Assembly: GCA_038142205.1 (NCBI GenBank)
Contig: JAYQJO010000001.1
Location: 1,205,415-1,269,414 of the forward strand
Direction: 5' to 3'
Source of the DNA: Pseudomonadota bacterium
GTDB lineage: Bacteria > Pseudomonadota > Gammaproteobacteria > Eutrophobiales > Eutrophobiaceae
Length of the DNA: 64,000 nt
This document shows positions 532 through 17,262 of the stretch, in pieces (within the stretch, counting starts at the first letter, position 1; every line of letters begins with the position of its first letter). Position numbers and translations under genes: made by a program. The notes under the pieces were generated by a model. It had not been told where the DNA came from and did not search any database. It saw only the letters and a list, made by a program, of their open reading frames with translations.

Positions 532-1530
532 TTATAATGTGCCATCTTTAAGTTTCTGGTTTAACTCAGCCCAACCTGATCCTGCTTTTCTCGCACCTTC
601 GAGATAATCTTCAGGTGCAGTGATGTAAGGCGGGCGGCATGGTCCGGCTTTCATCCAGCCTGCCGCGTTAATTCGTTCTTTTTCTAACTGAATGTTATAC
701 CTCGAAAATTCAGGGAAACCACCTGGAGGAAAAAGATTTGCTAACACGCCAATCATTTGTGGATACAATGCATCGGGAATACTCCAGTCCCCTGTTTTAC
801 ATGCCTCTTTAACACTATCACGTAGATGAATAGTTAACTCCGGTCCGGTACACGCACAAGGTGACCAAAATGCAGTATGAAATTCGGGATCCATTTTTGC
901 GGCATCAATATAGTCAAACTCCAAAGGTAAAAATCGTATCTGTTTGCGTGATACCATCGTATGTAAATGAAGTTGCGCGATATTTATATACTTACAGGTG
1001 ATCACCTGTGGGATATTCGCAACTTGTGCCCAGAACGGGGTCGGGAATGAAAATTTAAATGCCTCCGGATTAGCATAAATACAGATTGCCATTTCTGGAA
1101 CTGCTTCTGCTACATCCTTATAAAAACGCACAGCACCCGGCACATCAATCTCCTGCCACATGGGTACACCTAACATTGTGCCATCAGCACCAATGTCTCG
1201 GGCATGCTTTAGTTGACGAATGGTTTCCCTTGTATTTAATGTCGTCACACCGATAAAAATCGGCACTCGCCCTGCAGCAGTCTCGACCATGACTTCCATC
1301 ATCTTTTTCTTTTCTTCCCAGGTGATGGATGCTCCCTCGCCAAAAGTCCCTTGGCACATTATTGCATCAACACCGGCACTGATTAAACCCTCAACAGCTT
1401 TGGCTACTTCGTCATAATCAACCGAATCTTCGGTACGCCAATCCGAAGCAGAATCAATAGCAGGAGTCGGAATAATTGCCCAGGCACCATTGACATCATC
1501 TACTGTTAATCTATCTCTTTTGGTCACCAT
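532..1530 (-). CDS. nahE: trans-o-hydroxybenzylidenepyruvate hydratase-aldolase (NahE/PhdJ type, DHDPS/NAL family)
   Basis: 332 aa with near-colinear similarity to NahE (DDVNGAWAIIPTP, GTFGE, VTTLNTRE, ANPEAFKF, AGWMKAGPCRPPY motifs recalled from NahE). Confidence 0.8.
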   Translation of the reverse strand: MVTKRDRLTVDDVNGAWAIIPTPAIDSASDWRTEDSVDYDEVAKAVEGLISAGVDAIMCQGTFGEGASITWEEKKKMMEVMVETAAGRVPIFIGVTTLNTRETIRQLKHARDIGADGTMLGVPMWQEIDVPGAVRFYKDVAEAVPEMAICIYANPEAFKFSFPTPFWAQVANIPQVITCKYINIAQLHLHTMVSRKQIRFLPLEFDYIDAAKMDPEFHTAFWSPCACTGPELTIHLRDSVKEACKTGDWSIPDALYPQMIGVLANLFPPGGFPEFSRYNIQLEKERINAAGWMKAGPCRPPYITAPEDYLEGARKAGSGWAELNQKLKDGTL

Positions 1531-1586
1531 CTTATTTTCCTCAAATACTTGTATATATTTTCTGCTAATTAATAGATGTAAATGGA

Positions 1587-2075
1587 TTACTGATTCCTAG
1601 CATTTTTCCAAGATGCCTGAACAATATTTAAAACAATGTTTATCTCATCTTCATCACGTGGTGCATATACCATGGCAATGGTTTCAGGAATCGGTCCTAA
1701 CCCCGCCAACGGATGTTTCTCACCCCATTTCTTTTCTATGACTTCATTAAAATCAACTTCTGACAAAGCCATATGCATACTGACATCATATGCTGGATGA
1801 ACATGTGCAAATTCTCGGCCTATGATATATCCATTTTTGCAATTACATGTCTGTTCTTCATCAAGCCAAAGTGCCTCTGCTCCGGGCACTGAAATAATAC
1901 TTGCCTGTCTAGTGACGCCTTCGAAATTAAATACTCTTGATTTAAATTGTTGATGAATTTCCATTTCTGGATTTTGGCTCAACTGCTCATGAGGGTTAGT
2001 GTTTGTCGTTTCTGGTCGAGAACCTTGCCTTTCGGGTAAATCAATCTTCATCACTGAGATGTTCCTGGATTTCAA
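1587..2075 (-). CDS. Hypothetical protein, 162 aa, with an HxH...H metal-site-like motif (EFAHVHPAYDVSMHMAL), possibly a small cupin. The 4-bp ATGA overlap with the upstream oxygenase alpha subunit suggests translational coupling.
   Basis: ORF sits between the Rieske alpha subunit and nahE on the same strand and overlaps the alpha-subunit stop. I do not recognise a family. Confidence 0.35.
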   Translation of the reverse strand: MKSRNISVMKIDLPERQGSRPETTNTNPHEQLSQNPEMEIHQQFKSRVFNFEGVTRQASIISVPGAEALWLDEEQTCNCKNGYIIGREFAHVHPAYDVSMHMALSEVDFNEVIEKKWGEKHPLAGLGPIPETIAMVYAPRDEDEINIVLNIVQASWKNARNQ

Positions 2076-3316
2076 TAGCCCATGGTTTCGCGATAATATT
2101 TCCAGAAACCTACTATTGTTCCTTCGGATACTAGATGGTCAACGTTTTCGGCTTTACCCCCACCCATGGCAATGTAGGAAGACTTGTCCTGCTCGCGAAT
2201 CACAGAATCATGAACGATCTCTACTGCCTCACCATCTTCCATTGAGATTAAACCAGCAGGTCCAATTAAATTTCCTTGTTTAAGTCTGATAGCTTGCATC
2301 TCTTCATCATCATCTTCGAAACCAAACTGAGTCCAGACCAATTCAAATCCATCGACGCCTTTTGTGCATGTTTGTCTAACCGCAAGAGTATTGGCAATTT
2401 GTTGTAGTACAAGATTAGGAAACACAGTGAGAATTACCAGACTCACGTCATCATCGAATTCTTTACGACCTGCGAGAAGAGATGGATCTTCAAGCTTAAA
2501 TTCTGTATTGAAACTACGCATATTCTTAAAATCTTCAGTACTATCATCTGAATCTTTAATCGCAGTAAGCATGGAATGTCGTTTACTGTCATCCATGTGA
2601 CTCACACCTTTTTGTGAAGAGCGATACAAACCAAAAGTCATATGGAATAAATGTAACAAACTAGCGTGGTAAGGATCGCGCGTATTCTCTGCATACAGTT
2701 TCCAGTTACCACGAATATATTGACGTTGATCTCCTAATATTTTGATGGGTTTATTACAGATACGTTTAATTGCAGTAACCGTCATAGGCCCAAGATAGTC
2801 TTCCAGTGATCCCACTGTCTCAGAGAATGTAGCAAACACCAAACCTGCAACAGAATCAACGCGTAGTTTTTTCAGCGAATGCTCCTGCATTTTAAAGCCT
2901 TTTGGCATACCACCATTACCCTGTATCCCTCGTCGGAAAGGAACACCGATCAGATCACCTTTAAGATTATAGGCCCATTGATGATAGACGCATTCGAGGT
3001 TAGGTTTATTACCTCGCAGTTCACGACACACAGCGGCGCCCCTATGAGCGCAGGAATTGACAACAACATTAACCTGTCCTTCCTCATCGCGCATGACAAT
3101 GACAGGCGTATCACCAATGAATGTGGTTTTATAATCACCGGAATTCGGAATCTCAGCTTCTATAGCAACAAAAGACCAATTGTCTCCACGGAATATTTTT
3201 TCCTGTTCTCTTTCATAAACCTGTTCATTTGTGAACACCTTGTATGGCACTTCACAAACACCTCGATCTACCGGCCAATTCACTTCGCTAGATTTATTTT
3301 CCAATACTGAGCTCAT
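2072..3316 (-). CDS. Rieske non-heme iron ring-hydroxylating oxygenase, large (alpha) subunit; size and motifs resemble salicylate 5-hydroxylase NagG / anthranilate-dioxygenase type
   Basis: 414 aa with a Rieske CxH...CxxH motif (CAHRGAAVC...CVYHQW), followed by a catalytic domain with conserved His/Asp and an adjacent beta subunit. Confidence 0.85.
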   Translation of the reverse strand: MSSVLENKSSEVNWPVDRGVCEVPYKVFTNEQVYEREQEKIFRGDNWSFVAIEAEIPNSGDYKTTFIGDTPVIVMRDEEGQVNVVVNSCAHRGAAVCRELRGNKPNLECVYHQWAYNLKGDLIGVPFRRGIQGNGGMPKGFKMQEHSLKKLRVDSVAGLVFATFSETVGSLEDYLGPMTVTAIKRICNKPIKILGDQRQYIRGNWKLYAENTRDPYHASLLHLFHMTFGLYRSSQKGVSHMDDSKRHSMLTAIKDSDDSTEDFKNMRSFNTEFKLEDPSLLAGRKEFDDDVSLVILTVFPNLVLQQIANTLAVRQTCTKGVDGFELVWTQFGFEDDDEEMQAIRLKQGNLIGPAGLISMEDGEAVEIVHDSVIREQDKSSYIAMGGGKAENVDHLVSEGTIVGFWKYYRETMGY

Positions 3317-3330
3317 TTGATTTGCCTCCT

Positions 3331-3828
3331 TTAAATTGGGGTAACCATCAAACTTTGAATCTGATAGGTGTCAAAAACAGCTTTCTTTTGCTTAAATCTA
3401 AGGCCATCTTCTGTTGCAACGATTTCATCCAGGTACTTTCCTGAATTATAAATTTCTGTTGCGCCGTTTAGTCGAGTTTGTAATACCAGATAATTAGTTT
3501 GTACCGATATCACTTCATCTATTACACCCTTGATATTGACGTTGCTGATAATGTGACGATAAAAATGTTCAGCGTATACATTAGCATTTCGTAGTGAAAC
3601 AATACGATCTACCAACATTGCATTACTATCACATACTATTGCTGAGACGGGTAAATCACGGTCTGGATTTTCCCTGGATATAATCTGGTATAGACAGTCT
3701 TCAATAAAAAATTCCGGCCATTGTTCAAGATGATCATCATCAATGCATTCAACATAATTATGTTGTAATTGCTCAACATGAAATTGCAACTCCATCGGAG
3801 TCATATCGGATAATTTTATAGTTGCCAT
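3331..3828 (-). CDS. Ring-hydroxylating dioxygenase small (beta) subunit
   Basis: 165 aa NTF2-like beta-subunit sequence immediately upstream of the alpha subunit on the same strand. Confidence 0.8.
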   Translation of the reverse strand: MATIKLSDMTPMELQFHVEQLQHNYVECIDDDHLEQWPEFFIEDCLYQIISRENPDRDLPVSAIVCDSNAMLVDRIVSLRNANVYAEHFYRHIISNVNIKGVIDEVISVQTNYLVLQTRLNGATEIYNSGKYLDEIVATEDGLRFKQKKAVFDTYQIQSLMVTPI

Positions 3829-3831
3829 ATC

Positions 3832-4158
3832 TCAAGAGTCCTTTGAATCCAGGGGGATACAAATATTACCTTCATCTACGGTAACAGGATAAGTCTTGAT
3901 TGGAACTTGACATGGGAATGAAACTGCTTCTCCGGTTTTTATATCAAAGGCACCGCCATGAAAAGGACATTCAATTTCACCATCTTCCTGATAACCATCA
4001 GTGAGTAAAGCCATGCCATGGGTGCATAGATTATCAGTGACATAATAATCACCTTCATGAAGATACACCGCCAATGGTGGGAAACCATCAATATTAACCG
4101 CCAATGGTTTTTCTTCCTCGACGGCATCCGTTTTGCAAAGGGTAATTAATTCACTCAT
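3832..4158 (-). CDS. Rieske [2Fe-2S] ferredoxin component of the oxygenase system
   Basis: 108 aa with CTHGMALL...CPFHGG Rieske ferredoxin motifs. Sits directly upstream of the beta subunit, giving the unusual order ferredoxin-beta-alpha. Confidence 0.8.
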   Translation of the reverse strand: MSELITLCKTDAVEEEKPLAVNIDGFPPLAVYLHEGDYYVTDNLCTHGMALLTDGYQEDGEIECPFHGGAFDIKTGEAVSFPCQVPIKTYPVTVDEGNICIPLDSKDS

Positions 4159-4233
4159 CCTTATTTCCTGTTAGATTGTATTCATGTTTTTGGGCTTAAT
4201 AGAAAAAATTTTAAAATTTGAATATATTATTAA

Positions 4234-5530
4234 TTAATTTATTGATATAGATAGTAACTGTAAAGCTATCATTGCAAAAACCATTATCTTCATAGCATAA
4301 GGAAAATTCCAACGGAGTATATCCATTGGTTTAACAAAATAACGACTCTGCATCGCTAAATGCATACCAGAAAACGGACTCGCCCCCAAACCAATTCCCC
4401 ATGCGAATAAAAAGACCATAGCAAGTAATTCAGGCGATGGATTTAGCGGCTCCAACCAGAATCCTAATATTCCGATAAAAACGATCGGATGAACACCAAT
4501 CACTGCAAATAAAATCATTATCAACAGGCATAAAGCAGCTTCATTTCCATGAAATTGCATAAAAGGTACGACGAAATTTGAATGGTTGAAAAATTCACTA
4601 ATACCAACCGCTAATAATCCAGCACTTAGAAATAAACTAATTTCTCCCACCATTTCCGGTAATCGATAAATAATATGTCCCCCGAAAGAGCAGATGTTCT
4701 TTTTCATGCCATTACGTATAAACAGGATAATTAAAGTTACTACTGGTGCCAAAATCGTTATTGACATCAAAGTACCCATGTCTGGAAATAATACACGGCA
4801 GATTAATACCAGGATTAAAAGCATTACAGGTATTAACAGAGATTCAAAATGAATTGGATAACCTTCAAATTTTTCCTGATGGGATTTTATATCTTGTAAA
4901 GTAATCAAATGTGCAATCAGGGCGACTGGTAAACCGACCATCAAAAGCACACCTATGCTTGCACCTGGAGAATAAGTCAATGCAGCTGCCATAGCAGCAA
5001 AAAATGGTGACCAAAATGCAGCTGTTGAAAAGGCTCTAGATAATACTATGAATTGTGTTTTTCCAAGTGAGTGTTTTTGTGTCAGTCTGTCAGCAACAAT
5101 CATAATTGCAGATAAGTTAAGAACTGAACTAAATAGATGCGTACCAAACAAGGTTCTTCTTAAAGCTCGATTGCCATAAGGTAGTTGTTCATTTTCTAAT
5201 GTATTAGTTTGCGTGACCAATCTTAAAAAACTAACACTGATAAGCAGTGCGATTAGATTTTGATTACTAGTCAGAGCTAGCGATGATTCAAAACTTCCTG
5301 TATCAAACCAGACGTGGACCAAAAAACTGATTCCCAGAGTAACTAACACAATACTTTGGATCAACTGAATTACTGACAAAAGCCTGATTAATAAAAAACA
5401 ACCTAACCAAGCCAGGACGCCGCTAAGCCATGTAGGTGATGAAGATATAATTTCCCTTGCTGTAGAACTAATAAGCGAAAGAAAAAAGCACGCCTGCTAC
5501 TTTGGTTAAAATTTTATTTTCATTAAACAT
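4234..5530 (-). CDS. Polytopic membrane transporter (family not recognised), frameshifted near its 5' end in an A6 run at 5487-5492
   Basis: Track ORF 4234..5379 is highly hydrophobic with about 12 TM segments. A hydrophobic in-frame extension continues upstream to ATG 5530 (MFNENKILTKVAGVL...) once one base is adjusted in the homopolymer. Confidence 0.5.
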
Positions 5531-5532
5531 TA

Positions 5533-6477
5533 TTACTGCAGGTTTTTTAATAAGGTATATATAGTGCGCGTATAAGGAGCATCTTTACCTAAGGTTTCGC
5601 AATTATTAATAACAACGCCACATATTGCATCTAATTCAAGTGTCCTGCCTTTTTCTCTATCGATGAGCATTGACGGTTTAATCGCATCAAAGTCATAAAT
5701 GAGTTGAAACATTTCTTGAGCATCCGTCTCTTTTAGATCGGAACCATCAATCTGTGACGCCAAGGTTGTTTCATTCATCATGTGCTTCATTAACATTGCA
5801 TATTCTTCATGATGCGATAAATATTTCGTATCTTTTTGTATCAAAGCCGACAATGGATTAGTGCCGTTATTGATCATCAGTTTTCGCCAGAGTTCTTTGC
5901 GTATGTCATCTGATTCTTTTGTTGGTATTCCTGCCTGATTAAACATCTCAACAGTTTTAGAAACAAACTTTATACGATCTGGATCTGCGTCAACATTATG
6001 TGGCCATGCTCCCATGATGATCTGTGCAATCCCGACAGCAGTTACATTAGCCGGTTTAATAACATCAGCACCAATACGAACGGCAAGTCCCCCAATGATT
6101 TTTGATTCATTAAGATGGTCACTAAAAACTTGTTCATTACCCATGCCATTTTGTAATGAAAGAATATACGGTGAACCGGATTTTGTATTAATCCATTCTT
6201 TCAATACATTAGCTATTTCAAAAGTTGATGTCGTTTTAATACATATCAACAAAAGATCGAAGTCCGAGGACTTATGTTTCACAATAAGGTCATCTAAAGA
6301 ACATGCTGAGACTTTTTGTTTAAAACTAAAGTCTGGATGGGTGACAGATAATCCATCTGCCTGCATTGCAGTTAAATGTTCGCCACGGGCAACAAAGGTA
6401 ACCTCATGTCTAGCATTGACGAGCTTTGCTCCGTAATAGCACCCTATCCCCCCAGCTCCAATTACGGCAATACGCAT
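5533..6477 (-). CDS. 2-dehydropantoate 2-reductase family (PanE/ApbA-like NAD(P)H oxidoreductase)
   Basis: 314 aa with N-terminal Rossmann fold MRIAVIGAGGIGCYYGAKL and PanE-like architecture. Confidence 0.65.
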   Translation of the reverse strand: MRIAVIGAGGIGCYYGAKLVNARHEVTFVARGEHLTAMQADGLSVTHPDFSFKQKVSACSLDDLIVKHKSSDFDLLLICIKTTSTFEIANVLKEWINTKSGSPYILSLQNGMGNEQVFSDHLNESKIIGGLAVRIGADVIKPANVTAVGIAQIIMGAWPHNVDADPDRIKFVSKTVEMFNQAGIPTKESDDIRKELWRKLMINNGTNPLSALIQKDTKYLSHHEEYAMLMKHMMNETTLASQIDGSDLKETDAQEMFQLIYDFDAIKPSMLIDREKGRTLELDAICGVVINNCETLGKDAPYTRTIYTLLKNLQ

Positions 6478-6490
6478 TGTTATATATCAA

Positions 6491-7321
6491 TTATGATTCT
6501 TCAGAAAAGAAATTAATCACAAGATCATTAAAACGTTTGTTGTGCTCAATCTGTGTCCAGTGACCACATTGACCAAATAAATGTAATTGTGAGCGTTCGA
6601 TTAATTCGAAAAGCCGTTGTGATGTTGAAACCGGAATGACCCTGTCTTCACGACCATGAACAATCAAAGTATCATGCTTCACCTTACGTATATCTTCTTC
6701 AGGGCTTTGCATTCCTTCTATCCACTGCTGTCTAGGTGCTGGGAACATGGCGCTAAACGCTTCTTGGAAACCGGGTTGAATACTTGCCTTATAACGTAGC
6801 TCAGCCAGTTCATCACTCACGAGGTTTCGATCATGAGCGAAATAATCCATTATCTTACGCATGTTTTCGCTCGAAGGTTGATAACCCCAAACCGCATCAA
6901 GACCTTCCGTTAGTTCAAAATGAACACCAACGCTACCCATTAATACCAGTTTTTTAACGCGTTCCGGATGACGTATCGTTAGTGCAAGTGCTAAAGCACC
7001 ACCGAAAGAATTACCTACCAGATGGGTTTGTTCAATATTCAACGCATCCATTAGATCGATTGCATGCTTGACCCAATTATCCATATTGTATTCGACATCA
7101 TCGGGACGTTCGGTAAATCCAAAACCGGACATATCAGGCGCAACAACACGAAAATATTCTGAAAATGCTGGAATACAAAGCCGCCAGTTTGCCCATGCTG
7201 TCACGCCGGGACCCGAACCATGGATTAAAAATACATTATCGCCATCACCTTCATCGTGATAGTTAGTTTTAAAACTGCCAGTCTGGATTGAATTTGCGAT
7301 TTCAGGATTGTTGTTACTCAT
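6491..7321 (-). CDS. meta-cleavage product hydrolase (2-hydroxy-6-oxo-2,4-dienoate / 2-hydroxymuconic semialdehyde hydrolase; DmpD/XylF/TodF family, alpha/beta hydrolase)
   Basis: 276 aa with nucleophile-elbow GNSFGG, HGSGPG oxyanion region and a C-terminal His. Confidence 0.8.
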   Translation of the reverse strand: MSNNNPEIANSIQTGSFKTNYHDEGDGDNVFLIHGSGPGVTAWANWRLCIPAFSEYFRVVAPDMSGFGFTERPDDVEYNMDNWVKHAIDLMDALNIEQTHLVGNSFGGALALALTIRHPERVKKLVLMGSVGVHFELTEGLDAVWGYQPSSENMRKIMDYFAHDRNLVSDELAELRYKASIQPGFQEAFSAMFPAPRQQWIEGMQSPEEDIRKVKHDTLIVHGREDRVIPVSTSQRLFELIERSQLHLFGQCGHWTQIEHNKRFNDLVINFFSEES

Positions 7322-7341
7322 AAAATGTCCTTAAATAATTT

Positions 7342-8328
7342 TTAATAAAACCGGTCATAATGTATTTGTTCAAAAGGCACTTTATAATCCATCATCAACA
7401 TTCTTGTCGTAGCATCCGTCATGGGCGGGGGGCCACAGAAATAAAACTCATGTTCTGACAATGATTCACCTAATTGTTTCGCGACTAATTCATGGATAAA
7501 GCAACATGCTCCACCCCATATACCTTCTTTATTCAAATCGGGATCAGAAATTGCGTTAAAACAAATTAGTCTTGTATTCAGTATCTTTTCATTTGCAACC
7601 AATTCAGGCGTACAAATATCATCAGGTCCACGACCACCATAAAATAGATATATTTTTCTATCGTTTAATCTAGCATCACTTGCAGCAGCCTTTGCAATTG
7701 ACATGATGGGAGATAAACCTGAACCACCGCCTATAAGAACGATATCGCGGGGTATTTCGGGTTTTAAAAAAGCAAGCCCATAAGGGCCGTCTAGATGAAT
7801 TTTTGTACCGATTACACAATCATCGAATAAATAATTTGTGGCCTTTCCCCCTGGCATTTTTTTGATAATAAAATTCCATAGCCCATCATCATTAGGCAGG
7901 TTAGACATGGAATAACCTCGTGAGCCAGTTATTCCAGTAAAGTCAAGTAATGCAAATTGGCCTGGTAAAAAATGAGCCGGATGTTCTGTACGAAAACAGA
8001 ATTCCTGCATGTCATCAGTAAGTTTATTAATCTGTACTAATTCAGCCTCAAGACGGTTTGGTTTATGTTCTGGAGTTGAGTGAGAATCAAGCCTTACTTT
8101 AATTGTGCAATCCTTTTTTGGAACACATTGGCAACCCAACATCTTACCTTTACGAATATCTCTTGCAGAACGGCCCGGAGCATCTTCCCAAAGATTATCT
8201 ATCTCTCCGTCTATCAGTTCGAATTTACAACTGCCACAACCACCAGAATTACATTCGTAGGGGAAAACCAATGCCTGCACGTAATGCAGACCGAAGTAGC
8301 GTGTCACCGTCTTCACACTGATACTCAA
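7342..8328 (-). CDS. tmoF: NADH:ferredoxin oxidoreductase of the monooxygenase (TmoF-like; N-terminal plant-type 2Fe-2S plus FAD/NAD-binding FNR domain)
   Basis: 328 aa with a CxxGxCGxC-like cluster near the N-terminus, RGYS FAD motif, GGSGLSP NAD motif and C-terminal CGPPPM. Confidence 0.75.
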   Translation of the reverse strand: MSISVKTVTRYFGLHYVQALVFPYECNSGGCGSCKFELIDGEIDNLWEDAPGRSARDIRKGKMLGCQCVPKKDCTIKVRLDSHSTPEHKPNRLEAELVQINKLTDDMQEFCFRTEHPAHFLPGQFALLDFTGITGSRGYSMSNLPNDDGLWNFIIKKMPGGKATNYLFDDCVIGTKIHLDGPYGLAFLKPEIPRDIVLIGGGSGLSPIMSIAKAAASDARLNDRKIYLFYGGRGPDDICTPELVANEKILNTRLICFNAISDPDLNKEGIWGGACCFIHELVAKQLGESLSEHEFYFCGPPPMTDATTRMLMMDYKVPFEQIHYDRFY

Positions 8329-8403
8329 ATTCCTGTCCTTCTAATAGAATTTTGTGTGAGACCATTCTATATTCTCCTTAAATTATTTAATAACCAAAAA
8401 AAT

Positions 8404-8459
8404 GACCCAGCTAATCTAAATAATGGGGGCCCAAGTATTAAATGAGAGATTAGCGGGTC
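8404..8459 (-). promoter_or_regulatory. Imperfect 13-bp inverted repeat (gacccagctaatct ... agattagcgggtc) with a ~29-nt loop in the 200-bp tmoE-tmoF intercistronic gap; possible mRNA structure or processing site
   Basis: Inverted repeat read directly from the sequence, inside a same-strand operon gap. Confidence 0.3.
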
Positions 8460-8531
8460 AACATACTCTTCTACTGTGGAAGTATTGGAGTAAACTTTAT
8501 GGTTATTGAGTGCATCTGATTAATATTTTTT

Positions 8532-9521
8532 TTAAACGCCCAGGTTTTCTCTGGATTTTTCCAATGCAGCTTTAGCATTGTTAATTGCATTTTCACTGTC
8601 GGGTAATTCAGCGCAATATTTTTCAACAGCATTGATACCCAGTGGCATCCACTTATCCAACCAGGAGGTTAATACTGCTTTATTTTCTGAATTTTCTAAT
8701 GCCAAATCTACTAATGCTTTAGACCAGCGCATATGGCGTTCACTGTCTCGGCATTGGCTATCACATAACATACCCAACAAAGTATCTGAATTATGACGAC
8801 CTGCCTCACCCAATTGATGTAAGACTGCCGCTTCAACGGCCGGTTTAAGCACCAGGTTAATCGCACAAAAAGATTCTCCCCAATCCCAGGCGGTCATAGC
8901 TCTCTCTGTTAACTCACGAAATCCTTGCCAGGCTTCGTCATCTTCCCAATGCTTTCTTTCGTCTTGTCCAAACCCTGCATCAGGATGCGTTAAAGACAGT
9001 TCATATGTACGATAGGCCGTGTGTGTTAACCAACGATGCGAATCGGCTGCCTGAAATGTTGAACAATTCGTGATGGTACTTGCAGGCGCCATTTGTCCAA
9101 TGTAGGCCGAACTCATCTGTAAGGCATGAAAAACATAACGTGCAGGTGTGTACAATTTCGCAAGGGTTCCTACCCATTCACGATCAATCGCTTTGTCGTG
9201 TTCTCTGTCGTTGAATTGATCCAGCAAACTTTTGACATACGTTTCTTGACCATCCTGCATAATATTATAAGTACGATAAACAATAGCATCAGGATCTCTG
9301 AATGTATCCCAATCCTCATGTTGTAAAGGACTCTTATTACGATAATTTAAATACCACTGATTCATATGCAGATTAGTATCCATTTCCCAGGGTTTATCTG
9401 GGTTGTTCATACTGGTGTGCAAGCGAACAGAAGTAATATCATATTCACTGGGACGGCGACGATTCTTTGCCAGATGTGACCAGGTTTTTAATGGTTTTAA
9501 AACTTCAGGTGAATCACTCAT
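8532..9521 (-). CDS. tmoE: Toluene-4-monooxygenase-type hydroxylase beta subunit (TmoE/TouE-like)
   Basis: 329 aa diiron-monooxygenase beta-subunit-like sequence, placed after effector and ferredoxin genes in T4MO order. Confidence 0.8.
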   Translation of the reverse strand: MSDSPEVLKPLKTWSHLAKNRRRPSEYDITSVRLHTSMNNPDKPWEMDTNLHMNQWYLNYRNKSPLQHEDWDTFRDPDAIVYRTYNIMQDGQETYVKSLLDQFNDREHDKAIDREWVGTLAKLYTPARYVFHALQMSSAYIGQMAPASTITNCSTFQAADSHRWLTHTAYRTYELSLTHPDAGFGQDERKHWEDDEAWQGFRELTERAMTAWDWGESFCAINLVLKPAVEAAVLHQLGEAGRHNSDTLLGMLCDSQCRDSERHMRWSKALVDLALENSENKAVLTSWLDKWMPLGINAVEKYCAELPDSENAINNAKAALEKSRENLGV

Positions 9522-9575
9522 ACTAACCTCTTAACTTTTAATTTTTTAATATGTAGTTAACTACTATTGGTAGTT

Positions 9576-9878
9576 TTATAAATGTTTCTCGAAATAGAAC
9601 CTGACGTAGTCCTTGGTATTTTCTATCTTGCCAGCAAAGGAACTCAGATTGATTTCCAGTTCACGCATTTCAAAAGAGTGCCCAAGTATTTCTTCCATGG
9701 TTTCTTTGCGTAAGATACATTCATCTTCAACAGAGATACGTAGATAGGCCATTTTGTCATCGACGATAACTTCCTTACCCGGGTTATCTATCTCCATCGC
9801 TTCTGCGACAGCATCAGCTATTTCACCGGCTCTGACGACAGGCCCGACCATATTGTTTAATGATGCATCTTGGCTCAT
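9576..9878 (-). CDS. tmoD: Monooxygenase effector/coupling protein (TmoD, MmoB family)
   Basis: 100 aa, MmoB/DmpM-family size and sequence, in T4MO gene order. Confidence 0.8.
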   Translation of the reverse strand: MSQDASLNNMVGPVVRAGEIADAVAEAMEIDNPGKEVIVDDKMAYLRISVEDECILRKETMEEILGHSFEMRELEINLSSFAGKIENTKDYVRFYFEKHL

Positions 9879-9914
9879 TTATTTAATCCTCATTTTTTTG
9901 TTGTTTGATCGTTA

Positions 9915-10253
9915 TTAGGCTGGTGCAACGTAAGGTGTCACACCTTCTATATCCACCAAAACATCATCACCCTCAACCTTGATTGGATACTGAGACAATT
10001 TGCAATCAACCGGGTTAATTCCCTTACCATTCGAGCAATCAAACTGCCATAAATGTGCTCTGCAAGTCAGTTGTTTACCATCAAACTCACCTTCAACTAA
10101 AGGAATATCCTGATGTGGGCACATAGCCTGATACGCTTTAACATCACCGCCATCAATCACAGTGATCAATACTTCAGTATTGTCTGTTGTTTCGAAGACC
10201 TCCATTTCACCTTCCCAAACATCATCCAGGGTACATATTTTTTCAAATGCCAT
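9915..10253 (-). CDS. tmoC: Rieske ferredoxin of toluene monooxygenase (TmoC)
   Basis: 112 aa with CPHQ...CRAHLWQF Rieske motifs, in T4MO gene order. Confidence 0.85.
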   Translation of the reverse strand: MAFEKICTLDDVWEGEMEVFETTDNTEVLITVIDGGDVKAYQAMCPHQDIPLVEGEFDGKQLTCRAHLWQFDCSNGKGINPVDCKLSQYPIKVEGDDVLVDIEGVTPYVAPA

Positions 10254-10272
10254 GTTTTATCTCTTTTCCTTA

Positions 10273-10531
10273 TCATTCATCAGCAAAAATAATGTCGATT
10301 GTTTCAGTTGGCTCTAACCCTGAATCAGCGACCTTCATATCTCTCGGAAAGAAATCATCAGCACCTTGTTTCCTGACTCTTAATATCTTGTCAGGTTGTG
10401 GTGCAACTCTACGACCAATCGAAATGCGCTGCTGCTGCAGCAACTTCATCCATGGTGTTTTCTGTATCGACTGGCACAAGTTGAATCACAAAGTCATGTT
10501 CAAAATTTGAAAGTAATGGAAATGCAGCCAT
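10273..10531 (-). CDS. tmoB: Toluene-4-monooxygenase gamma subunit (TmoB), frameshifted by one base at A3 run 10426-10428
   Basis: Two frames together recapitulate TmoB: MAAFPLLSNFEHDFVIQLVPVDTENTMDEVAAAAAH in one frame, then ISIGRRVAPQPDKILRVRKQ...FPRDMKVADSGLEPTETIDIIF in the other. An AGGAGA ribosome-binding site precedes ATG at 10531. Confidence 0.75.
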
Positions 10532-10558
10532 CAGTGTCTCCTGTATATCTGTATTTAA

Positions 10559-12060
10559 TTAACCGGCTTTTTTATGCGCCATTTCTTTATAAATGTTTGC
10601 CCATTCCAAACCATAGGCATCATCACCAATCTCACCCGGCGCCAGACTCATGTACTTCAGCGCTCCACTGAGATCCATGGGTTCCATCATCCCCGCCAGG
10701 AAGCGATCGATAAAACTCAGATGATCCGCATAGCGTTCTGGTTCCTGTTCAAAACACCAGCGATCCGGTTCAGAACCAAAATGATATAAACGATCTTTAT
10801 ACTTGAGAGGATAATCTTTGACATTCCAGCCATTACCTGGTGAACCCACAATGGGTATATTCGACATATTGCATATTGCAGGTAGAGTTTCCGGCAAAGT
10901 AAGCTCAACTTTATCATTGACCAAGTTATCGATAATGACATCCCAACACTTGCCAAATGTATCGTTCCAACCAGGATATTTTTCTTCCAGCCATTCTCGT
11001 TCATCCGGGTTTACACCGGCACGAGGATTCCACCAAACCGTAGGGCGCCAATACCAAACACCCATATGCATACCATGGTGAGTTTCATCGAGATCTCGTA
11101 AAAACTGATCCCAATACCAGGGTTTATCCAGGCCAAGATCGAGAATACTGCGTTCAAACTGCCCGACTATCCATTCTTCCATAAACTCTTTAAAAGACTG
11201 GCTTCGATGTTCAAGGGGTGTGTAGTAGTCCATCATGGGTCCCGTCAACACAGAAAACAATTTCCATGAACGCCAAAAAGCAATATCTATCAATCTCTGG
11301 GCATCGGCTTTTTTACCTTTTTCCACCAACAACTTGACCATTGGGCCACCCTGCTGAGCGTGACGTGATTCATCGGTCTGTATACTTGAGATTAAACTTG
11401 AAAATGTATGGTCACCGGCCTCCGAAGCATCAGCGGCTAAGCCCAGAAACTGCATATTGGTAAAACCTGTTTCAAAAGCAAACGTCAGCATAATACCCAT
11501 ACTGATCGCATCGCGGCTATGAATGATATCTTCAAAAAAATGCCTGCCAGCCAAAGCTGCCCATTCATTAGTATGTAATGCTTTTTGTGCCCAATCCCAT
11601 TTTCTATCCAAATTGCAGTTGGCATGTGGAAAAAACAATTGAAGTTGAGCATGACGAGTTTCATCCATCATGCCAAACGTGGCCATGTTACGGTTACCCG
11701 GCGCCTTGGAAAACGCGCCATTCTACCTTCGCCAACAATTGCGCCATATTCAGCCAAAGCTAAAGCACCATAATGTGCTTGTAGAATACTGATCCAGCCT
11801 GGATCAGCACGATCAAGAAATTTATCACGCGCTAATGCCGCTTTTACTGAATAAGCACCCGCATCTTTTTCACGTTGGGTCTCAACGTATTCAGGATAAG
11901 TCACTTTGTAAGGCTCATCATAGGTTTCCCAATCCTCAATTGAAATTCCGCGATGACCTGACATTTCCTCAGGAAATAATTCATCCTCAGTGACATATTT
12001 CGGCGTCCAGTTGGTTGCCCTTAATAAATCATACCATTCTGTTCTTTCGATCATGGCCAT
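10559..12060 (-). CDS. tmoA: Toluene-4-monooxygenase hydroxylase alpha subunit (TmoA), split into track ORFs 11668..12060 and 10559..11686 by a one-base error in A4 run 11710-11713
   Basis: The N-terminal ORF (MAMIERTEWYDLLRATNWTPKYVTEDELFPE...GEGRMARF) and the C-terminal ORF (MATFGMMDETRHAQLQLFFPH...) are colinear with TmoA. Diiron ligand motifs E..H are present. The frames rejoin if observed cgttttcc is read as cgtttttcc. Confidence 0.85.
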
Positions 12061-12131
12061 GGTTGTTATCCTCTCATTACCTTTTTTAATTTTCTAACTA
12101 TGTAATTAATATTTTGACATTAACTGTCGAT

Positions 12132-12322
12132 TTACTTACCAAGTTCCTTGGCCGATTTTCCAGCGATACCAAAATGCGATTTTGGTACTTCATTTAAAAT
12201 GACTCGAATACTTTCCCTGGGTGCGCCCAAACTTTCCTCTATTGCATCAGTGATGCTTGCAATTAAGTTTGCTTTTTCTCATCGTCTCTGCCTTCCATGA
12301 TGGTGATATTTGCTATGGGCAT
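12132..12322 (-). CDS. 4-oxalocrotonate tautomerase (DmpI/XylH family, ~63 aa), frameshifted at 12265-12266; not in the ORF track
   Basis: Reverse strand reads MPIANITIMEGRDDEKKQT then, in the other frame, LIASITDAIEESLGAPRESIRVILNEVPKSHFGIAGKSAKELGK. The N-terminal Pro1 after Met and the overall pattern match 4-OT. Confidence 0.7.
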
Positions 12323-12349
12323 ATTTTCAATCTCGTATATATAATTTAA

Positions 12350-13416
12350 TTAAATATTTTTAAATAACGGGCTTTTCGGTTTTTCATCTTTCGAGGCATT
12401 AGTATAGAAATGCTCCATGAATAAATGCTTTTCAAACAGACGTCCTTGCATCAAGGTCGTTATACAAGCATCTATCATTGGGGGTGGCCCACACATGTAG
12501 GCTTTATTGCCTTCAAACTTTCCATCATAAATAGAATTGGCAACTTCATGCACCATGCCTCGTTCACCTTGCCAGTCACTGTCTTCCGGTTCTTCTGATA
12601 AAGCGGGTATATATCTGAAATTTTCATGTTCTTCTGCTAATGCTTCGAACACTTCCCGGTAATACAACTCCTGTTGATTTCTTGCACCATAAATCAAAGT
12701 GATCTCTCTTTGCTCACCTTTTTCAAACTGATCCAGAATCATCGATTTTGGACTGGACAGACCTGATCCTCCTGCCAAAAATAACATCGGCTCAGGTGCA
12801 GAGTTACGCACAAAGAAACGACCATAAGGTCCTGAAAAATTTAATTCATCACCCACTTTTAATTGTTCATGGATATACGTTGTACCTGCACCACCCTGTA
12901 CCAGTGAAATATTCAGTTCGACAATTGAATTCTCAGAAGGAGAATTAGCAATAGAAAATGCACGAGCTGGTCCTGCAATTCCTGGAATTTCCAGATTAAT
13001 ATAATGACCGGCTTGAAATTCAATGGAGTCATTTTCTATCTCGAGAAAAATACCTTTGATTCTTGATTTAAATCGGTGATCTCAATCACCTTCGCTTTAA
13101 AATCTCTTACCTGATGTGATTCCGCATCAGGGTCTTCTTCGACGTCTGCTTCAATCACCAAGTCAGACGTTGGTGTGGCACAGCACGCCAAACATTTACC
13201 TTCACCTTTTTCCATATCCATCAAGGCAAATGGCGAAGCCTCGCCATGTTCAATATCACCTTCAAGCACATCGACTTTACAAGTGGCACATAAACCATGG
13301 CCACATGCATACGGTAGATAAATTCCAGCTCTTAATGAAGCATCAAGAATGGTTTGACCTTCTTCGACCTCAATAATCTCGCCCAAAGGTTCAATTTCAA
13401 CCTGATAAGTCAACAT
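12350..13416 (-). CDS. dmpP: Phenol hydroxylase reductase component (DmpP-like; 2Fe-2S ferredoxin plus FNR domains), frameshifted at A5 run 13046-13050
   Basis: N-terminal ORF 13036..13416 (ferredoxin domain CGHGLCATCKV) and C-terminal ORF 12350..12856 (GPYGRFFVR, AGGSGLSSP, CGPPPM) are colinear with DmpP. The middle segment reads correctly in a third frame (IEFQAGHYINLEIPG...). Confidence 0.85.
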
Positions 13417-13776
13417 TTAATTTCCATAGCCTTTCACACCATTTAAATCAGGTGTAATAAATCTTAATAATGATTTATGTCCAAAACCGTTGTCTTTTAA
13501 ACTGGCGCTTGTATCTGGTGTGAAATCTTCATCATCAAGAATCCAGTTGACGTTATCCCACTTTACTTTTTCATATTCTGGATGAGCCGAAAAAATACTC
13601 GGGATCACTTCCTCCAGCAAAGCACCAAAAGGCATCTCTGGTGGTAATGGAAAGGCTAATGCTGCAGTAAATAGATTGTGATTATCCCAATGGATATAGA
13701 CCAACTGATTTCCATGAAAATTTTCTACAGCATCTTTGTTAATATCGACGTAATCGCCTAAGGGGTTAATTGCCAT
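13417..13776 (-). CDS. dmpO: Phenol hydroxylase component P4 (DmpO, gamma subunit)
   Basis: 119 aa with VENFHG, PLPPEMPFG, HPEYEKVKWD motifs as recalled from DmpO. Confidence 0.85.
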   Translation of the reverse strand: MAINPLGDYVDINKDAVENFHGNQLVYIHWDNHNLFTAALAFPLPPEMPFGALLEEVIPSIFSAHPEYEKVKWDNVNWILDDEDFTPDTSASLKDNGFGHKSLLRFITPDLNGVKGYGN

Positions 13777-13788
13777 TATTTTATTCTC

Positions 13789-15318
13789 CTAGCCTGTAGC
13801 CACGTCGCCTTGTTTATCTTCACCCTTCCATTCCTGCCAGCGTTTGTGATCTGGTGAACCGACATATTCCAGATTATCTTCACCATCATTTAGATGGTAA
13901 TAATTCAGGACATCTGACAATTCAGCACCGCCACAATTACCCTGGAATATCTGATGAACTGGCAACCATGATTGAGTATATTTTTCTGGTTCATTCTCAA
14001 ACACATCTTTACAGCCATCAGAACAAGTGTGATATCGATCGCCCTTGTACATTGAAACGCGACGACTGATCTTCATTGGGTCAGACATGACTTCTGTAAA
14101 GAACATCGGTATCTGACAGGTCTGGCAAAGCTGCGGAAGACCCTTAACATAGTGTCGTTCGCCGGCTTTTTCCATCTCGCGCCATTGTTCAAAACGTGGA
14201 CGATAATACTGATCGAAGGTATTTGGATATTTTTCTGATAGCCAATCCATTTTCTTATCATCTGGCACCCAGGTATGGAATGCAGCTGCATGAGTGAAAT
14301 TATACAAATCACTCCAGGTCTGATGACTTAAATGTTCTGACTCAGCCGTAGCCAATTCATGATGTTTAGGCATACGTAAACCATAACGAGACAAGTCATT
14401 AAACAGAGCACCCATGTTTTCGACAAAATAGACTTGCCAGGCTTCGCCCCATGACATAGGAGAGTTGGGCAACATGTAATCCTGCATAGCAGAGATCAAT
14501 GCCAGTAAGCGATAGGCGCGCCAGAAATGTTTATCAATGTAACCCTGGATGATGGGCAGATTGTCTTCATGCTGTTCAACCATGAATTTTATAATCTCAA
14601 GACCTAATGTCATATGACGGGCTTCGTCAGACTGTGCTGAAAATCCAAAGGTCACCGTTGCCATATCACCGTTATAAGCCGCACCTGACATAAAAGGCAC
14701 GAACAACAGATTGGTCAATACATATTCAAATGAAAATGAAACCGAGGTAATAAACTCAAACGGTCCTGCTGTCATTGCATCTTCAAAATAGGATTTGGGT
14801 ACAGATAGATACCAGACACGGTCAAACTGATGAAACGCATCATGCATACCATTAAAGTGTTTATTGTAATGACTTAAGGTATGTAGTTGTGTCTGGCAAT
14901 GACGTAGTTCATCGATGGCCTGCATCTGGCAGGCAACCCGAGTGCCTTCACCACGGAAATGTCGGCCCAGGTGTGCGTAATGGCGATGTGCACCATATTC
15001 CAGAGGCGTGACACCCTGGATAAACAGTTTCAGGGCATTGACATAACGGGCATCAGAAACATTCAAATGACCATTATTCTGTGCAAAGCTATCGATAATG
15101 GCATAGAGTTTTTTCTCTTTTTCTGCCTGATATTTCCAGTATGCATCCACTGTTAAACGAAATGGATCTTCCCAGCCAGACCAGTCTTTAATTTTTATGC
15201 CTTCAAACTTATCGTAAGGAAAAACTTTATCCATCGGCTGATAAGTCGTGTCCCAACCCATACCACGGGTGAGAACTTCATAGCGTTTACGCATATTTAA
15301 TTTTTTCTTTGCTGCCAT
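13789..15318 (-). CDS. dmpN: Phenol hydroxylase component P3 (DmpN, diiron hydroxylase alpha subunit)
   Basis: 509 aa with diiron ExxH motifs (AIDELRH, SDEARH) and overall DmpN colinearity. Confidence 0.9.
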   Translation of the reverse strand: MAAKKKLNMRKRYEVLTRGMGWDTTYQPMDKVFPYDKFEGIKIKDWSGWEDPFRLTVDAYWKYQAEKEKKLYAIIDSFAQNNGHLNVSDARYVNALKLFIQGVTPLEYGAHRHYAHLGRHFRGEGTRVACQMQAIDELRHCQTQLHTLSHYNKHFNGMHDAFHQFDRVWYLSVPKSYFEDAMTAGPFEFITSVSFSFEYVLTNLLFVPFMSGAAYNGDMATVTFGFSAQSDEARHMTLGLEIIKFMVEQHEDNLPIIQGYIDKHFWRAYRLLALISAMQDYMLPNSPMSWGEAWQVYFVENMGALFNDLSRYGLRMPKHHELATAESEHLSHQTWSDLYNFTHAAAFHTWVPDDKKMDWLSEKYPNTFDQYYRPRFEQWREMEKAGERHYVKGLPQLCQTCQIPMFFTEVMSDPMKISRRVSMYKGDRYHTCSDGCKDVFENEPEKYTQSWLPVHQIFQGNCGGAELSDVLNYYHLNDGEDNLEYVGSPDHKRWQEWKGEDKQGDVATG

Positions 15319-15341
15319 ATTAATTCTCCAATATTGTCTGA

Positions 15342-15614
15342 TCAGCTAAGCCAGCTTAAAGCAAAATAATCATCGTCTTCATCGATATTGCCACTCAAGG
15401 AAACCAGATTAAGTTGTAATTCCATCGGATCCCAATCCTGCCCTTTAAATTCAGACACACTGTCGCGATTCACCACCAATCTCCCGGGAGATTCTATACG
15501 CACCATGCCCGGTTGGTAGTCTATCGTTGCATCTTGATTATCCTGTTCAATCGCCTCAATAATTGGTCGAGCATCTTCATTATCTTGTAAAATTAGAAAA
15601 ACATTGTCAGTCAT
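15342..15614 (-). CDS. dmpM: Phenol hydroxylase component P2 (DmpM, regulatory/effector protein, MmoB family)
   Basis: 90 aa acidic MmoB-like protein between the P1 and P3 genes. Confidence 0.85.
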   Translation of the reverse strand: MTDNVFLILQDNEDARPIIEAIEQDNQDATIDYQPGMVRIESPGRLVVNRDSVSEFKGQDWDPMELQLNLVSLSGNIDEDDDYFALSWLS

Positions 15615-15625
15615 GCCATTCCCCT

Positions 15626-16624
15626 TTATATATTGAGTCCCTGTTTAGACAGGCGCTCCAGCAATTGTTGTTTAACTTCATTCACAGCGACATCGCCATC
15701 ACCTGCAAAAGCAGCCTGGCCTATCGGCATTAAAGCTTCCGTCAGGCGGTCAGCCCATTTAGTTGTCCATTGTGTAAGTAAAGCAGCATTTTCTGGTGAC
15801 TCGTTTGCTGTGACTTTGATTAAGGCATTGGTCCAACGTACTGTTTCTGCATACCAGTCCGACATAAATTCAGTGAGCATGGCGAAGGTAGAACCACCTT
15901 CACGAGTTAATTCGTCTACAAAACGTTCGAACATAAGTGGATAGATCAGTCCATCCATAACAACATTTTGCGCCACCATAATTTCGAACCAGTCATCTAA
16001 AACAAACGTGTCCTCAACAGCATGTCGTAATTCTTGCCAGATATCTTCGTTCAACCAGGCTTCTTTGGCCGATTCAAGTGAAGTGGTTTCATTGCCATCA
16101 ACCATCAAGCCAATGCGACTGATATACTGCGCCAGTCCCAAACGATCAATTGCATTGAACATTGTCACCTGAGTAATAGCCGTGCCATAACCAAAATCGG
16201 TGATCGCGCAATTATTCATATTCGCGCCCCATTCAACATGACGTAGCGGAACAAGAAAATCGCGTACTTTTTGTTTGACTTCGTGAGATATTGATTCCAT
16301 CGTGTCACGTTTTTCTACGAAGTTATAATTACTTTCAGCTACTTCCTGTTGTTTTGAGCGAGCAATCGTGTAAGCACCATAATAAAACTGACGTGGATCC
16401 TTAAAGTCATACCAGTTCTTCATGACGATTGCAGTGCGACTTTCATCATAAACTTCATGTTCGGGATCCCAGAGAGGACGATAATGAAAATTAGTTGTCG
16501 GTTGAATACCAATAGTGGCTTCCTGATATCGAGAAGCAGGTTTGCCTTCGCCGATATGTCGTGCAACTTGATCGTAGGTTTCTCGAATCGGTTCTATTGT
16601 TTTTGCTGAAATTTCCAGACTCAT
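15626..16624 (-). CDS. dmpL: Phenol hydroxylase component P1 (DmpL, beta subunit)
   Basis: 332 aa beta-subunit-like sequence in dmp gene order. Confidence 0.85.
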   Translation of the reverse strand: MSLEISAKTIEPIRETYDQVARHIGEGKPASRYQEATIGIQPTTNFHYRPLWDPEHEVYDESRTAIVMKNWYDFKDPRQFYYGAYTIARSKQQEVAESNYNFVEKRDTMESISHEVKQKVRDFLVPLRHVEWGANMNNCAITDFGYGTAITQVTMFNAIDRLGLAQYISRIGLMVDGNETTSLESAKEAWLNEDIWQELRHAVEDTFVLDDWFEIMVAQNVVMDGLIYPLMFERFVDELTREGGSTFAMLTEFMSDWYAETVRWTNALIKVTANESPENAALLTQWTTKWADRLTEALMPIGQAAFAGDGDVAVNEVKQQLLERLSKQGLNI

Positions 16625-16667
16625 ATATCTATTTCCCGTATTTTAATTCTGTTATTAAAGCTTGCTA

Positions 16668-16949
16668 TTACTCATCGTCCCCAGTTAAACCATTACGCCA
16701 TTTGAGTTGGTCATAATCGACTTGTGCACATTGTTTAGTGGTTAATTCTTTGGCTTCATTACGCTTACAAAATTTTCTGAAATGTTCAAACGGCATCATT
16801 AATTCAACAAATAGCGTCGGATCCCCGATAGAAAAATTAAATTCTACAAATTTTTTATCCCGCACACCGGTGACTCTGACGTAGCGTTGATTATGGTTAT
16901 CGAATGAATCTCTCGTTGACACAATGTTTTTATTTATTGTATATACCAT
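16668..16949 (-). CDS. dmpK: Phenol hydroxylase component P0 (DmpK, assembly protein)
   Basis: 93 aa as the first gene of the dmp operon. A GGAAAG ribosome-binding site precedes the ATG. Confidence 0.8.
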   Translation of the reverse strand: MVYTINKNIVSTRDSFDNHNQRYVRVTGVRDKKFVEFNFSIGDPTLFVELMMPFEHFRKFCKRNEAKELTTKQCAQVDYDQLKWRNGLTGDDE

Positions 16950-16988
16950 TAAATAAGTACTTTCCTACCTTAAAATTATTATTAATTA

Positions 16989-17004
16989 GCAGTTACTGTA
17001 CCAA
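16989..17004 (-). promoter_or_regulatory. Candidate sigma-54 (-24/-12) promoter for the dmp/tmo supra-operon: TGGTAC-N5-CTGC on the minus strand
   Basis: Reverse complement ttggtacagtaactgc has GG and GC elements at the correct 10-nt spacing, ~40 nt upstream of the dmpK ATG. It has one mismatch in each element versus TGGCAC-N5-TTGC. Confidence 0.35.
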
Positions 17005-17247
17005 CTATAATTAACATATTAAAATCAATAATATAACTTAAATTTAATTTAAAACTTTGGTGCTAGTTTTTATCATATGATAAATTTTATAAATACATTT
17101 AATCGGAAATTTTAACGTCAATGCCTTATTATTTCTGCCTGTTAAAATTAATAAAATTTAATTTCATGGAATAAACCTAACTACTTATATGATTACAAAA
17201 GAAAAAATAGTTTGGTATGACTACAGTATGAATAAATAAATCTAATC

Positions 17248-17262
17248 TGGCATCAAGTTTGC
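17248..17262 (+). promoter_or_regulatory. Sigma-54 (-24/-12) promoter TGGCAT-N5-TTGC upstream of the alcohol dehydrogenase gene
   Basis: tggcatcaagtttgc matches the consensus TGGCAC-N5-TTGC with correct spacing, about 60 nt upstream of ATG 17324. Confidence 0.55.

Follow-up and report, generated by a model that had tools for sequence, protein, structure and literature searches.

A BphA1c/AhdA1c-type Rieske oxygenase downstream of a toluene monooxygenase cluster and the reductase that most likely serves it

We analyzed a 64,000-nucleotide stretch (the window) of contig JAYQJO010000001.1 from a pseudomonadotal genome (GenBank assembly GCA_038142205.1). The organism is a marine gammaproteobacterium of low GC content that has Cycloclasticus-like metagenome-assembled genomes (MAGs) among its relatives. 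The minus strand of the window carries a single long run of aromatic catabolic genes, from position 16949 down to 532, within which the three genes of a Rieske oxygenase lie downstream of a toluene monooxygenase (TMO) cluster. An earlier note on this DNA had described these three genes as standing in inverted order, without a reductase of their own, and had suggested that they might share the TMO reductase TmoF. The genes at the center of this question are as follows.

8532..12060, minus strand: tmoABCDE, TMO; Phenol_Hydrox, TmoB, Rieske, and MmoB_DmpM matched in the contig L082
9915..10253, minus strand: TmoC, Rieske ferredoxin of the TMO
7342..8365, minus strand: FNR-type reductase at the tmoF position (TmoF/PhnA4 family); Fer2, FAD_binding_6, and NAD_binding_1
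3832..4158, minus strand: Rieske-type [2Fe-2S] ferredoxin, BphA3/PhnA3-like, 108 amino acids (aa); PF00355, 7e-19
3331..3828, minus strand: oxygenase beta (small) subunit, 165 aa; Ring_hydroxyl_B, PF00866, 1.4e-15
2072..3316, minus strand: oxygenase alpha (large) subunit, 414 aa, BphA1c/AhdA1c/PhnA1b-like; Rieske and Ring_hydroxyl_A

Identity and gene order of the Rieske oxygenase

The ferredoxin, beta, and alpha genes are three consecutive intact open reading frames (ORFs) at the coordinates reported earlier. They are separated by 3 nucleotides (nt) between ferredoxin and beta and by 14 nt between beta and alpha, and AGGAGG precedes alpha. In translation, the alpha subunit carries the Rieske motif CxH...CxxH as CAH...CVYH and the mononuclear iron motif His-x4-His as DPYHASLLH, and the ferredoxin carries the Rieske motif CTH...CPFH. 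The alpha subunit is 65 to 69% identical to the products of genes that follow bphA3-bphA2c in dozens of sphingomonad genomes and plasmids; against the same sphingomonad module, identity is 45 to 55% for beta and 54 to 61% for the ferredoxin. BphA1c, AhdA1c, and PhnA1b have been placed in one group (PMC2358900). In a neighbor-joining (NJ) tree of alpha subunits, a split with 100% support separates the window gene, its counterparts at the related loci L001 and L003, and BphA1c-like genes from NagG, the terephthalate dioxygenase alpha subunit (TPADO), and a 49% identical paralog from pNL1. This placement, which the earlier note had proposed as a check, puts the alpha subunit among ferredoxin-dependent systems and not among two-component systems fed directly by their reductase. 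The three genes encode the ferredoxin and the small and large subunits of a three-component Rieske oxygenase of the BphA1c/AhdA1c/PhnA1b type.

Gene order was counted at loci from species-representative genomes and metagenomes, 155 of which gave a usable alpha match, some of them redundant. Where alpha was at least 63% identical to that of the window (n = 106), beta lay directly upstream of alpha in all but one case (105/106); the order was ferredoxin-beta-alpha at 90 loci, beta-alpha-ferredoxin at 3, and beta-alpha without an adjacent ferredoxin at 12. At the 49 loci with an alpha at most 55% identical, beta-alpha was never found, and all 38 that showed a beta had the order alpha-beta. The arrangement on pNL1 is bphC, ferredoxin, beta, alpha, and 2-hydroxychromene-2-carboxylate isomerase (nahD). 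The overlapping pairs ahdA2c-ahdA3 and nahD-ahdA1c have been named in a sphingomonad (PMC4048848), so the sphingomonad module reads ahdA3-ahdA2c-ahdA1c (bphA3-bphA2c-bphA1c). Ferredoxin-beta-alpha is thus not the inverted and unusual order for which it had been taken; it is the order inherited within the BphA1c/AhdA1c clade, a marker of a known clade rather than a rearrangement.

In sphingomonads, AhdA1cA2c together with AhdA3 and AhdA4 forms catechol from salicylate and 2-aminophenol from anthranilate (PMC4048848). The window oxygenase is surrounded by NahE-like, hydrolase, 4-oxalocrotonate tautomerase (4-OT), and catechol 2,3-dioxygenase (C23O) genes, and in relatives it is followed by a NahD-like gene; these surroundings fit the conversion of salicylate to catechol. 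No gentisate dioxygenase was seen in ORF scans of the window and of the flanks in relatives. The enzyme is most probably a salicylate 1-hydroxylase that would supply catechol to the surrounding meta-cleavage genes.

The reductase at the tmoF position

As the earlier note stated, no reductase gene adjoins ferredoxin-beta-alpha: the TmoF-type ORF ends at 7342, 3183 nt (~3.2 kb) upstream of the ferredoxin start. The ORF of 7342..8328 given in that note does belong to a TmoF-type reductase, but it covers only the 3' portion of the gene, which spans 7342..8365 and carries a frameshift. The N terminus of the protein (MVSHKILLEGQEF...) is read in the other frame, and the shift lies within TTTTCCCC at ~8263, where a run of C has one extra C. 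The intact 340-aa reductase (P0121) is encoded in L082, a Logan contig of this strain (SRR11524960), and the gene is also intact in L083. It comprises an N-terminal plant-type 2Fe-2S domain (PF00111) followed by FAD-binding (PF00970) and NAD-binding (PF00175) domains. The reductase gene and the three Rieske genes share a strand, with intergenic gaps of 2 to 75 nt from TmoF to alpha, and we predict that they are co-transcribed. Scanning for promoters and terminators returned counts no higher than in shuffled sequence, and every terminator-like site on the minus strand from the reductase gene to the NahE-like gene falls within a coding sequence, none between genes.

In the window, L001, and L002, the reductase gene follows tmoE; in other relatives, it stands next to a Rieske ferredoxin gene. 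Its closest homolog outside the immediate relatives, P0003 (74% identity), is not TMO-linked and lies in the arrangement reductase-Rieske ferredoxin-DSBA. The Cycloclasticus homologs P0005 (67 to 68%) and P0021 (62 to 63%) show the same arrangement beside polycyclic aromatic hydrocarbon (PAH) dioxygenase genes, and P0035 (62 to 63%) also belongs to a reductase-ferredoxin arrangement. At six Porticoccaceae or other gammaproteobacterial loci (L003-L006, L071, and L084), a 340-aa FNR-type reductase, 59 to 61% identical to the window TmoF, directly precedes ferredoxin-beta-alpha itself; the flanks read among these loci have a GlcG-like gene before the reductase and a NahD-like gene after alpha. 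Identity to the window reductase is 50 to 65% for reductases encoded at the end of other TMO clusters. For the window ferredoxin, identity is 71 to 73% to the ferredoxins beside the relatives' reductases (73% to those that follow the L165 and L166 reductases), 56% to BphA3 of pNL1, and 22% to its own neighbor TmoC. The identities of reductase and ferredoxin therefore run parallel, at ~73 to 74% to the adjacent pair of L165. The two window genes look equivalent to a pair that lies side by side in relatives but is split here.

An NJ tree of the reductases groups those of the window, L001, and L002 with that of L165, which belongs to a reductase-ferredoxin-DSBA arrangement, with 100% bootstrap support. 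In the same tree, members linked to TMO clusters are interleaved with members linked to Rieske systems, and the genomic context of the reductase seems to have switched several times between the end of a TMO cluster and the side of a Rieske ferredoxin. Because of this interleaving, and because the genes of several members adjoin ferredoxin genes of Rieske dioxygenases, annotation of this family as "toluene monooxygenase electron transfer component" is unreliable. The reductases that carry this label from JGI (L165-L174, L003-L006, L168, and L169) form one family with 50 to 74% identity.

TmoF had been taken for the only flavin reductase of the operon, which does not hold, since a DmpP-type reductase (12350..13416) is part of the same gene string. 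DmpP falls in a clade separate from TmoF in the NJ tree, and the phenol hydroxylase reductase DmpP donates electrons directly to its hydroxylase. A scan of the other ORFs across the 64 kb of the window detected no glutathione-reductase-type (Pyr_redox_2) reductase and no further FNR-type reductase. Likewise, among the listed matches of the TmoF/PhnA4 family with at least 52% identity, no second member came from the 2,664,267-bp source contig. The missing reductase of the Rieske oxygenase is most likely the one that ends the neighboring TMO cluster.

Proposed electron path and competing explanations

On balance, gene content and comparison lead us to favor a salicylate 1-hydroxylase in the order of its clade, reduced by the tmoF-position reductase, which would also serve the TMO. 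Electrons from NADH would pass through the FAD to the plant-type 2Fe-2S center of the TmoF/PhnA4-family reductase (7342..8365), from there to the BphA3/PhnA3-like Rieske ferredoxin, and on to the Rieske center of alpha and the mononuclear iron of an alpha3beta3 oxygenase. At this iron, salicylate would be hydroxylated at C1 and decarboxylated, giving catechol. TmoC, for the diiron hydroxylase of the TMO, would be reduced by this reductase as well, so that a single reductase would supply two unrelated oxygenases, each by way of a Rieske ferredoxin of its own. The suggestion of the earlier note that TmoF might serve both oxygenases is therefore favored by comparative evidence, in that relatives of the reductase adjoin orthologs of this ferredoxin.

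The closest model is the sphingomonad salicylate 1-hydroxylase, known as BphA1cA2c (Sphingomonas yanoikuyae B1 and pNL1 of Novosphingobium aromaticivorans F199), AhdA1cA2c (Sphingobium strains P2 and PNB), and PhnA1bA2b (Sphingomonas CHY-1). Its module, with the ferredoxin BphA3/AhdA3/PhnA3, shares with the window the order ferredoxin-beta-alpha and the neighboring genes of the naphthalene lower pathway (nahD and nahE), and in both cases the reductase is not adjacent; in sphingomonads it is common to other oxygenases. Six or seven oxygenases there draw on a single ferredoxin and a single reductase of the glutathione-reductase type, whose genes lie in separate clusters (PMC2358900, PMC4048848). 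However, the window differs in its gammaproteobacterial host, in its site downstream of a TMO cluster, and in its only plausible reductase, which is of the FNR type with an N-terminal 2Fe-2S domain, whereas the sphingomonad reductase BphA4/AhdA4 is of the glutathione-reductase type. The electron-transfer class is accordingly predicted to be Kweon type III here, versus type IV for the sphingomonad module.

Both electron carriers resemble the PhnA4/PhnA3 pair of Cycloclasticus in family, with 62 to 68% identity to MAG homologs for the reductase and 71 to 73% for the ferredoxin. From their gene context, and not from a sequence comparison with strain A5, we infer that these MAG genes correspond to phnA4 and phnA3 of that strain. 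The partner of PhnA3, the BphA3-like ferredoxin of Cycloclasticus A5, is the FNR_N-type reductase PhnA4, and NagG also uses an FNR_N-type reductase (PMC2358900); electron-transfer components are often common to several Cycloclasticus dioxygenases (PMC11099662). Reductase and ferredoxin are adjacent in Cycloclasticus (reductase-ferredoxin-DSBA), whereas in the window they lie 3.2 kb apart with the reductase at the tmoF position. By this position after tmoE, its domain architecture, its length, and its identity to reductases that end TMO clusters, the window protein resembles the TmoF/TouF/TbuC type, from which it differs in that its nearest outside relative is not TMO-linked. In Ralstonia sp. 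U2, the FNR_N-type reductase NagAa and the Rieske ferredoxin NagAb likewise serve more than one oxygenase, the naphthalene dioxygenase and NagGH, whose alpha subunit is homologous to that of the window. NagGH, however, has the order alpha-beta and yields gentisate; moreover, both clients in strain U2 are Rieske oxygenases that have the ferredoxin in common too, whereas the clients proposed here belong to different superfamilies and have a ferredoxin each.

That several Rieske oxygenases can share electron carriers is well established for sphingomonads, Ralstonia U2, and Cycloclasticus; among the papers searched, none was found to describe a reductase shared across the diiron monooxygenase and Rieske superfamilies. 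The more general proposal would be that an FNR-type reductase feeds both a diiron TMO and a Rieske salicylate hydroxylase through ferredoxins that are 22% identical, and that its family moved repeatedly between TMO-terminal and Rieske-ferredoxin-adjacent positions in marine gammaproteobacteria; we regard the arguments for and against it as evenly balanced. If it is true, electron-transfer sharing reaches across enzyme superfamilies, which would help to explain how small-genome marine hydrocarbon degraders combine many oxygenases with few redox partners. Apart from the likely sharing of the reductase, this is an aromatic catabolic cluster of the ordinary kind.

Several observations weigh against the reading favored here, and some of them favor other explanations. 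The deep nodes of the reductase NJ tree are poorly supported, so recruitment may have run from TMO to Rieske systems or the reverse, and three unrelated genes lie between the reductase and the ferredoxin. The succession TmoF-hydrolase-PanE-membrane protein is found in addition behind an independent TMO cluster (L171), whose available 7 kb of downstream sequence shows no Rieske oxygenase, so the reductase may be a native TMO component. TmoF could then serve the TMO only, with the Rieske oxygenase fed by a reductase encoded elsewhere in the genome, either a PhnA4 homolog beside a PAH dioxygenase cluster or a BenC-like protein. This explanation, which we judge possible but unlikely, agrees with the sphingomonad module, whose reductase is always in another cluster (PMC2358900, PMC4048848), and with the 12 of 106 related loci that have beta-alpha without an adjacent ferredoxin, let alone a reductase. 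It can also point to a 357-aa FNR-type reductase in L086 and L002, ~4.4 kb beyond the NahE-like gene, at a position equivalent to just left of window position 1. That protein is BenC-like (229 bits), but its gene stands immediately before those of a BenA-like alpha (592 bits) and the corresponding beta. This layout fits a two-component system, in which no ferredoxin is needed, and makes the BenC-like protein an unlikely partner here. A dedicated adjacent reductase, which the earlier note had named as contrary evidence, was not seen. The elsewhere-encoded reductase is further disfavored by the absence of a second family member of the source contig among the listed homologs and by the parallel ~73 to 74% identities to the adjacent pair of L165, both described above. 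The substrate, for its part, was predicted from 65 to 69% identity and from gene context. Other candidate activities are those of salicylate 5-hydroxylase (NagGH-like), anthranilate dioxygenase (AndAcAd-like), and ortho-halobenzoate or terephthalate dioxygenases: AndAc is the best NCBIfam model for alpha, the closest PDB matches are TPADO (397 bits) and the salicylate 5-hydroxylase NagG (370 bits), and AhdA1c itself also accepts anthranilate (PMC4048848). Yet alpha and beta miss the AndAc/AndAd equivalog cutoffs (NF041684/NF041685) with 531 bits against 750 and 203 against 230, respectively, the ferredoxin scores 89 against an NCBIfam cutoff of 150, and AndAc-annotated genes are 49 to 52% identical to alpha versus 65 to 69% for the BphA1c clade. 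NagG and TPADO lie across the fully supported split, among relatives that are all alpha-beta, and the C23O, hydrolase, NahE-like, and NahD-like context, with no gentisate dioxygenase among the ORFs scanned, does not suit these activities either. Membership in the AndAc, NagG, or TPADO groups was rejected on score, identity, tree position, and gene order, and we consider a substrate of this kind improbable.

A last objection to the shared reductase is its +1 frameshift, which, if real, would remove the N-terminal part of the 2Fe-2S domain. L082 is 99.85% identical to window positions 980..18358, from which it differs by 16 substitutions and seven indel events of 1 to 2 nt, at ~13066, 12278, 11714, 10424, 8430, 8263, and 5488. 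These indels break DmpP, 4-OT, TmoA, TmoB, TmoF, and the membrane protein gene, whereas the three Rieske genes, the hydrolase gene, and the NahE-like gene have unbroken reading frames in the window. Such a pattern could mean that TmoA, TmoB, DmpP, and the reductase are decaying pseudogenes and that the intact Rieske genes use another donor or none. But six of the seven sites, all except that of TmoB among the broken genes, lie in single-base runs, and every gene is intact in the independent L082 assembly (DmpP, 354 aa; TmoA, 500 aa; TmoB, 86 aa; TmoF, 340 aa; membrane protein, 432 aa). Since nearly all of the indels lie in single-base runs and none is present in L082, they are probably assembly errors in an intact cluster, and their pattern suggests an uncorrected long-read assembly. 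Elsewhere in the window, a XylR-type regulator, phosphoenolpyruvate (PEP) synthase, C23O, an epimerase, and a polysaccharide synthesis gene also look split (18398-20096, 22744-25114, 27303-27956, 39065-40011, and 46691-48429). That housekeeping genes such as the PEP synthase and epimerase genes are split in the same way is better explained by assembly error than by selective decay, which we find very improbable.

Neighboring genes and the rest of the window

The other genes of the catabolic run are listed here.

12350..16949, minus strand: phenol hydroxylase, dmpKLMNOP-type
12350..13416, minus strand: DmpP-type reductase belonging to the phenol hydroxylase genes, the second of FNR type; reading frame shifted at ~13066
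12132..12322, minus strand: 4-OT
6491..7321, minus strand: alpha/beta hydrolase, meta-cleavage product hydrolase-like, HsaD/BphD-like; Abhydrolase_1, 7e-35
5533..6477, minus strand: PanE/ApbA-family reductase-like gene; PF02558 and PF08546
4234..5530, minus strand: membrane protein, 432 aa when read intact; no family match; 2-nt indel at ~5488
1587..2051, minus strand: PF17648 (Luciferase-domain) protein, 154 aa; PF17648, 8e-20
532..1530, minus strand: NahE-like hydratase-aldolase of the DHDPS family (naphthalene lower pathway); PF00701, 1.4e-23

The ORF after alpha had been described as a 162-aa product coupled to alpha by an ATGA overlap. The overlap is in fact TTGA and uses a TTG codon. The ATG at 2051, in contrast, lies 10 nt after AGGAA, which fits a ribosome-binding site, and leaves a 20-nt gap to alpha. 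The 154-aa product that starts there exactly matches an NCBI-derived entry of the protein collection, and homologs measure 157 to 158 aa. Taken together, these features make ATG 2051 the most likely start, with alpha and the PF17648 ORF not overlapping. PF17648 is a fungal-luciferase-like domain, and only this strain has the gene inserted between alpha and nahE. Among the loci fetched, it accompanies the oxygenase only in L082 and L164, both contigs of this strain; L001, L002, and L086 have in its place an unrelated 97-aa ORF on the opposite strand, and the alpha subunit of such relatives is 93 to 94% identical. Its Cycloclasticus homologs (68%; L175/L176, 7001-7474) lie beside GreA/GreB-family, major facilitator superfamily, and molybdopterin oxidoreductase genes. 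Since it is absent from relatives with so similar an alpha and its Cycloclasticus homologs occur in unrelated contexts, we rejected this ORF as an accessory of the oxygenase and regard it as a strain-specific passenger.

The gene at 532..1530, putatively NahE-like, is 91 to 94% identical in L001 and L002 and 56 to 58% identical in L008, L029, and L048, where it adjoins related oxygenase genes. A search with its protein turned up only short Logan contigs that break off at this gene. Upstream of the Rieske genes, the hydrolase (6491..7321) is kept after TmoF in L001, L002, and L171, as is the PanE/ApbA-like gene; the pair recurs directly downstream of TmoF in the independent TMO cluster of L171 (8208-11533). 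The polytopic membrane protein of 4234..5530 gave no Pfam or NCBIfam match and is missing in the close relatives L001, L002, L085, and L086. L171 encodes a 40% identical homolog at the equivalent position, after hydrolase...PanE. This protein may be a transporter of aromatic compounds.

In L086, positions 12845-20096 correspond to what would lie immediately to the left of the window. There, the NahE-like gene is followed by genes for an outer-membrane protein, a NahD-like isomerase, and a GFA-family protein, then for a hydrolase and an AlkB/XylM-like membrane hydroxylase, and finally by the BenC-like reductase and BenA/BenB-like dioxygenase genes. As catabolic genes continue past the NahE-like gene in relatives, the catabolic island reaches beyond the window.

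Fer2 was matched by one ORF in the batch scan (2.4e-16), which, judging from its position, is probably that at 27998..28339 on the minus strand, a XylT-like plant-type ferredoxin. This candidate sits upstream of the C23O ORF (27303..27956, minus strand), which encodes just 217 aa and is probably shortened by an indel. Positions 44000-64000 form a low-GC (30 to 34%) block of polysaccharide/O-antigen biosynthesis genes, including glycosyltransferases, Wzy_C, asparagine synthase paralogs, and a DegT aminotransferase, whereas the catabolic cluster has a GC content of ~39 to 43%.

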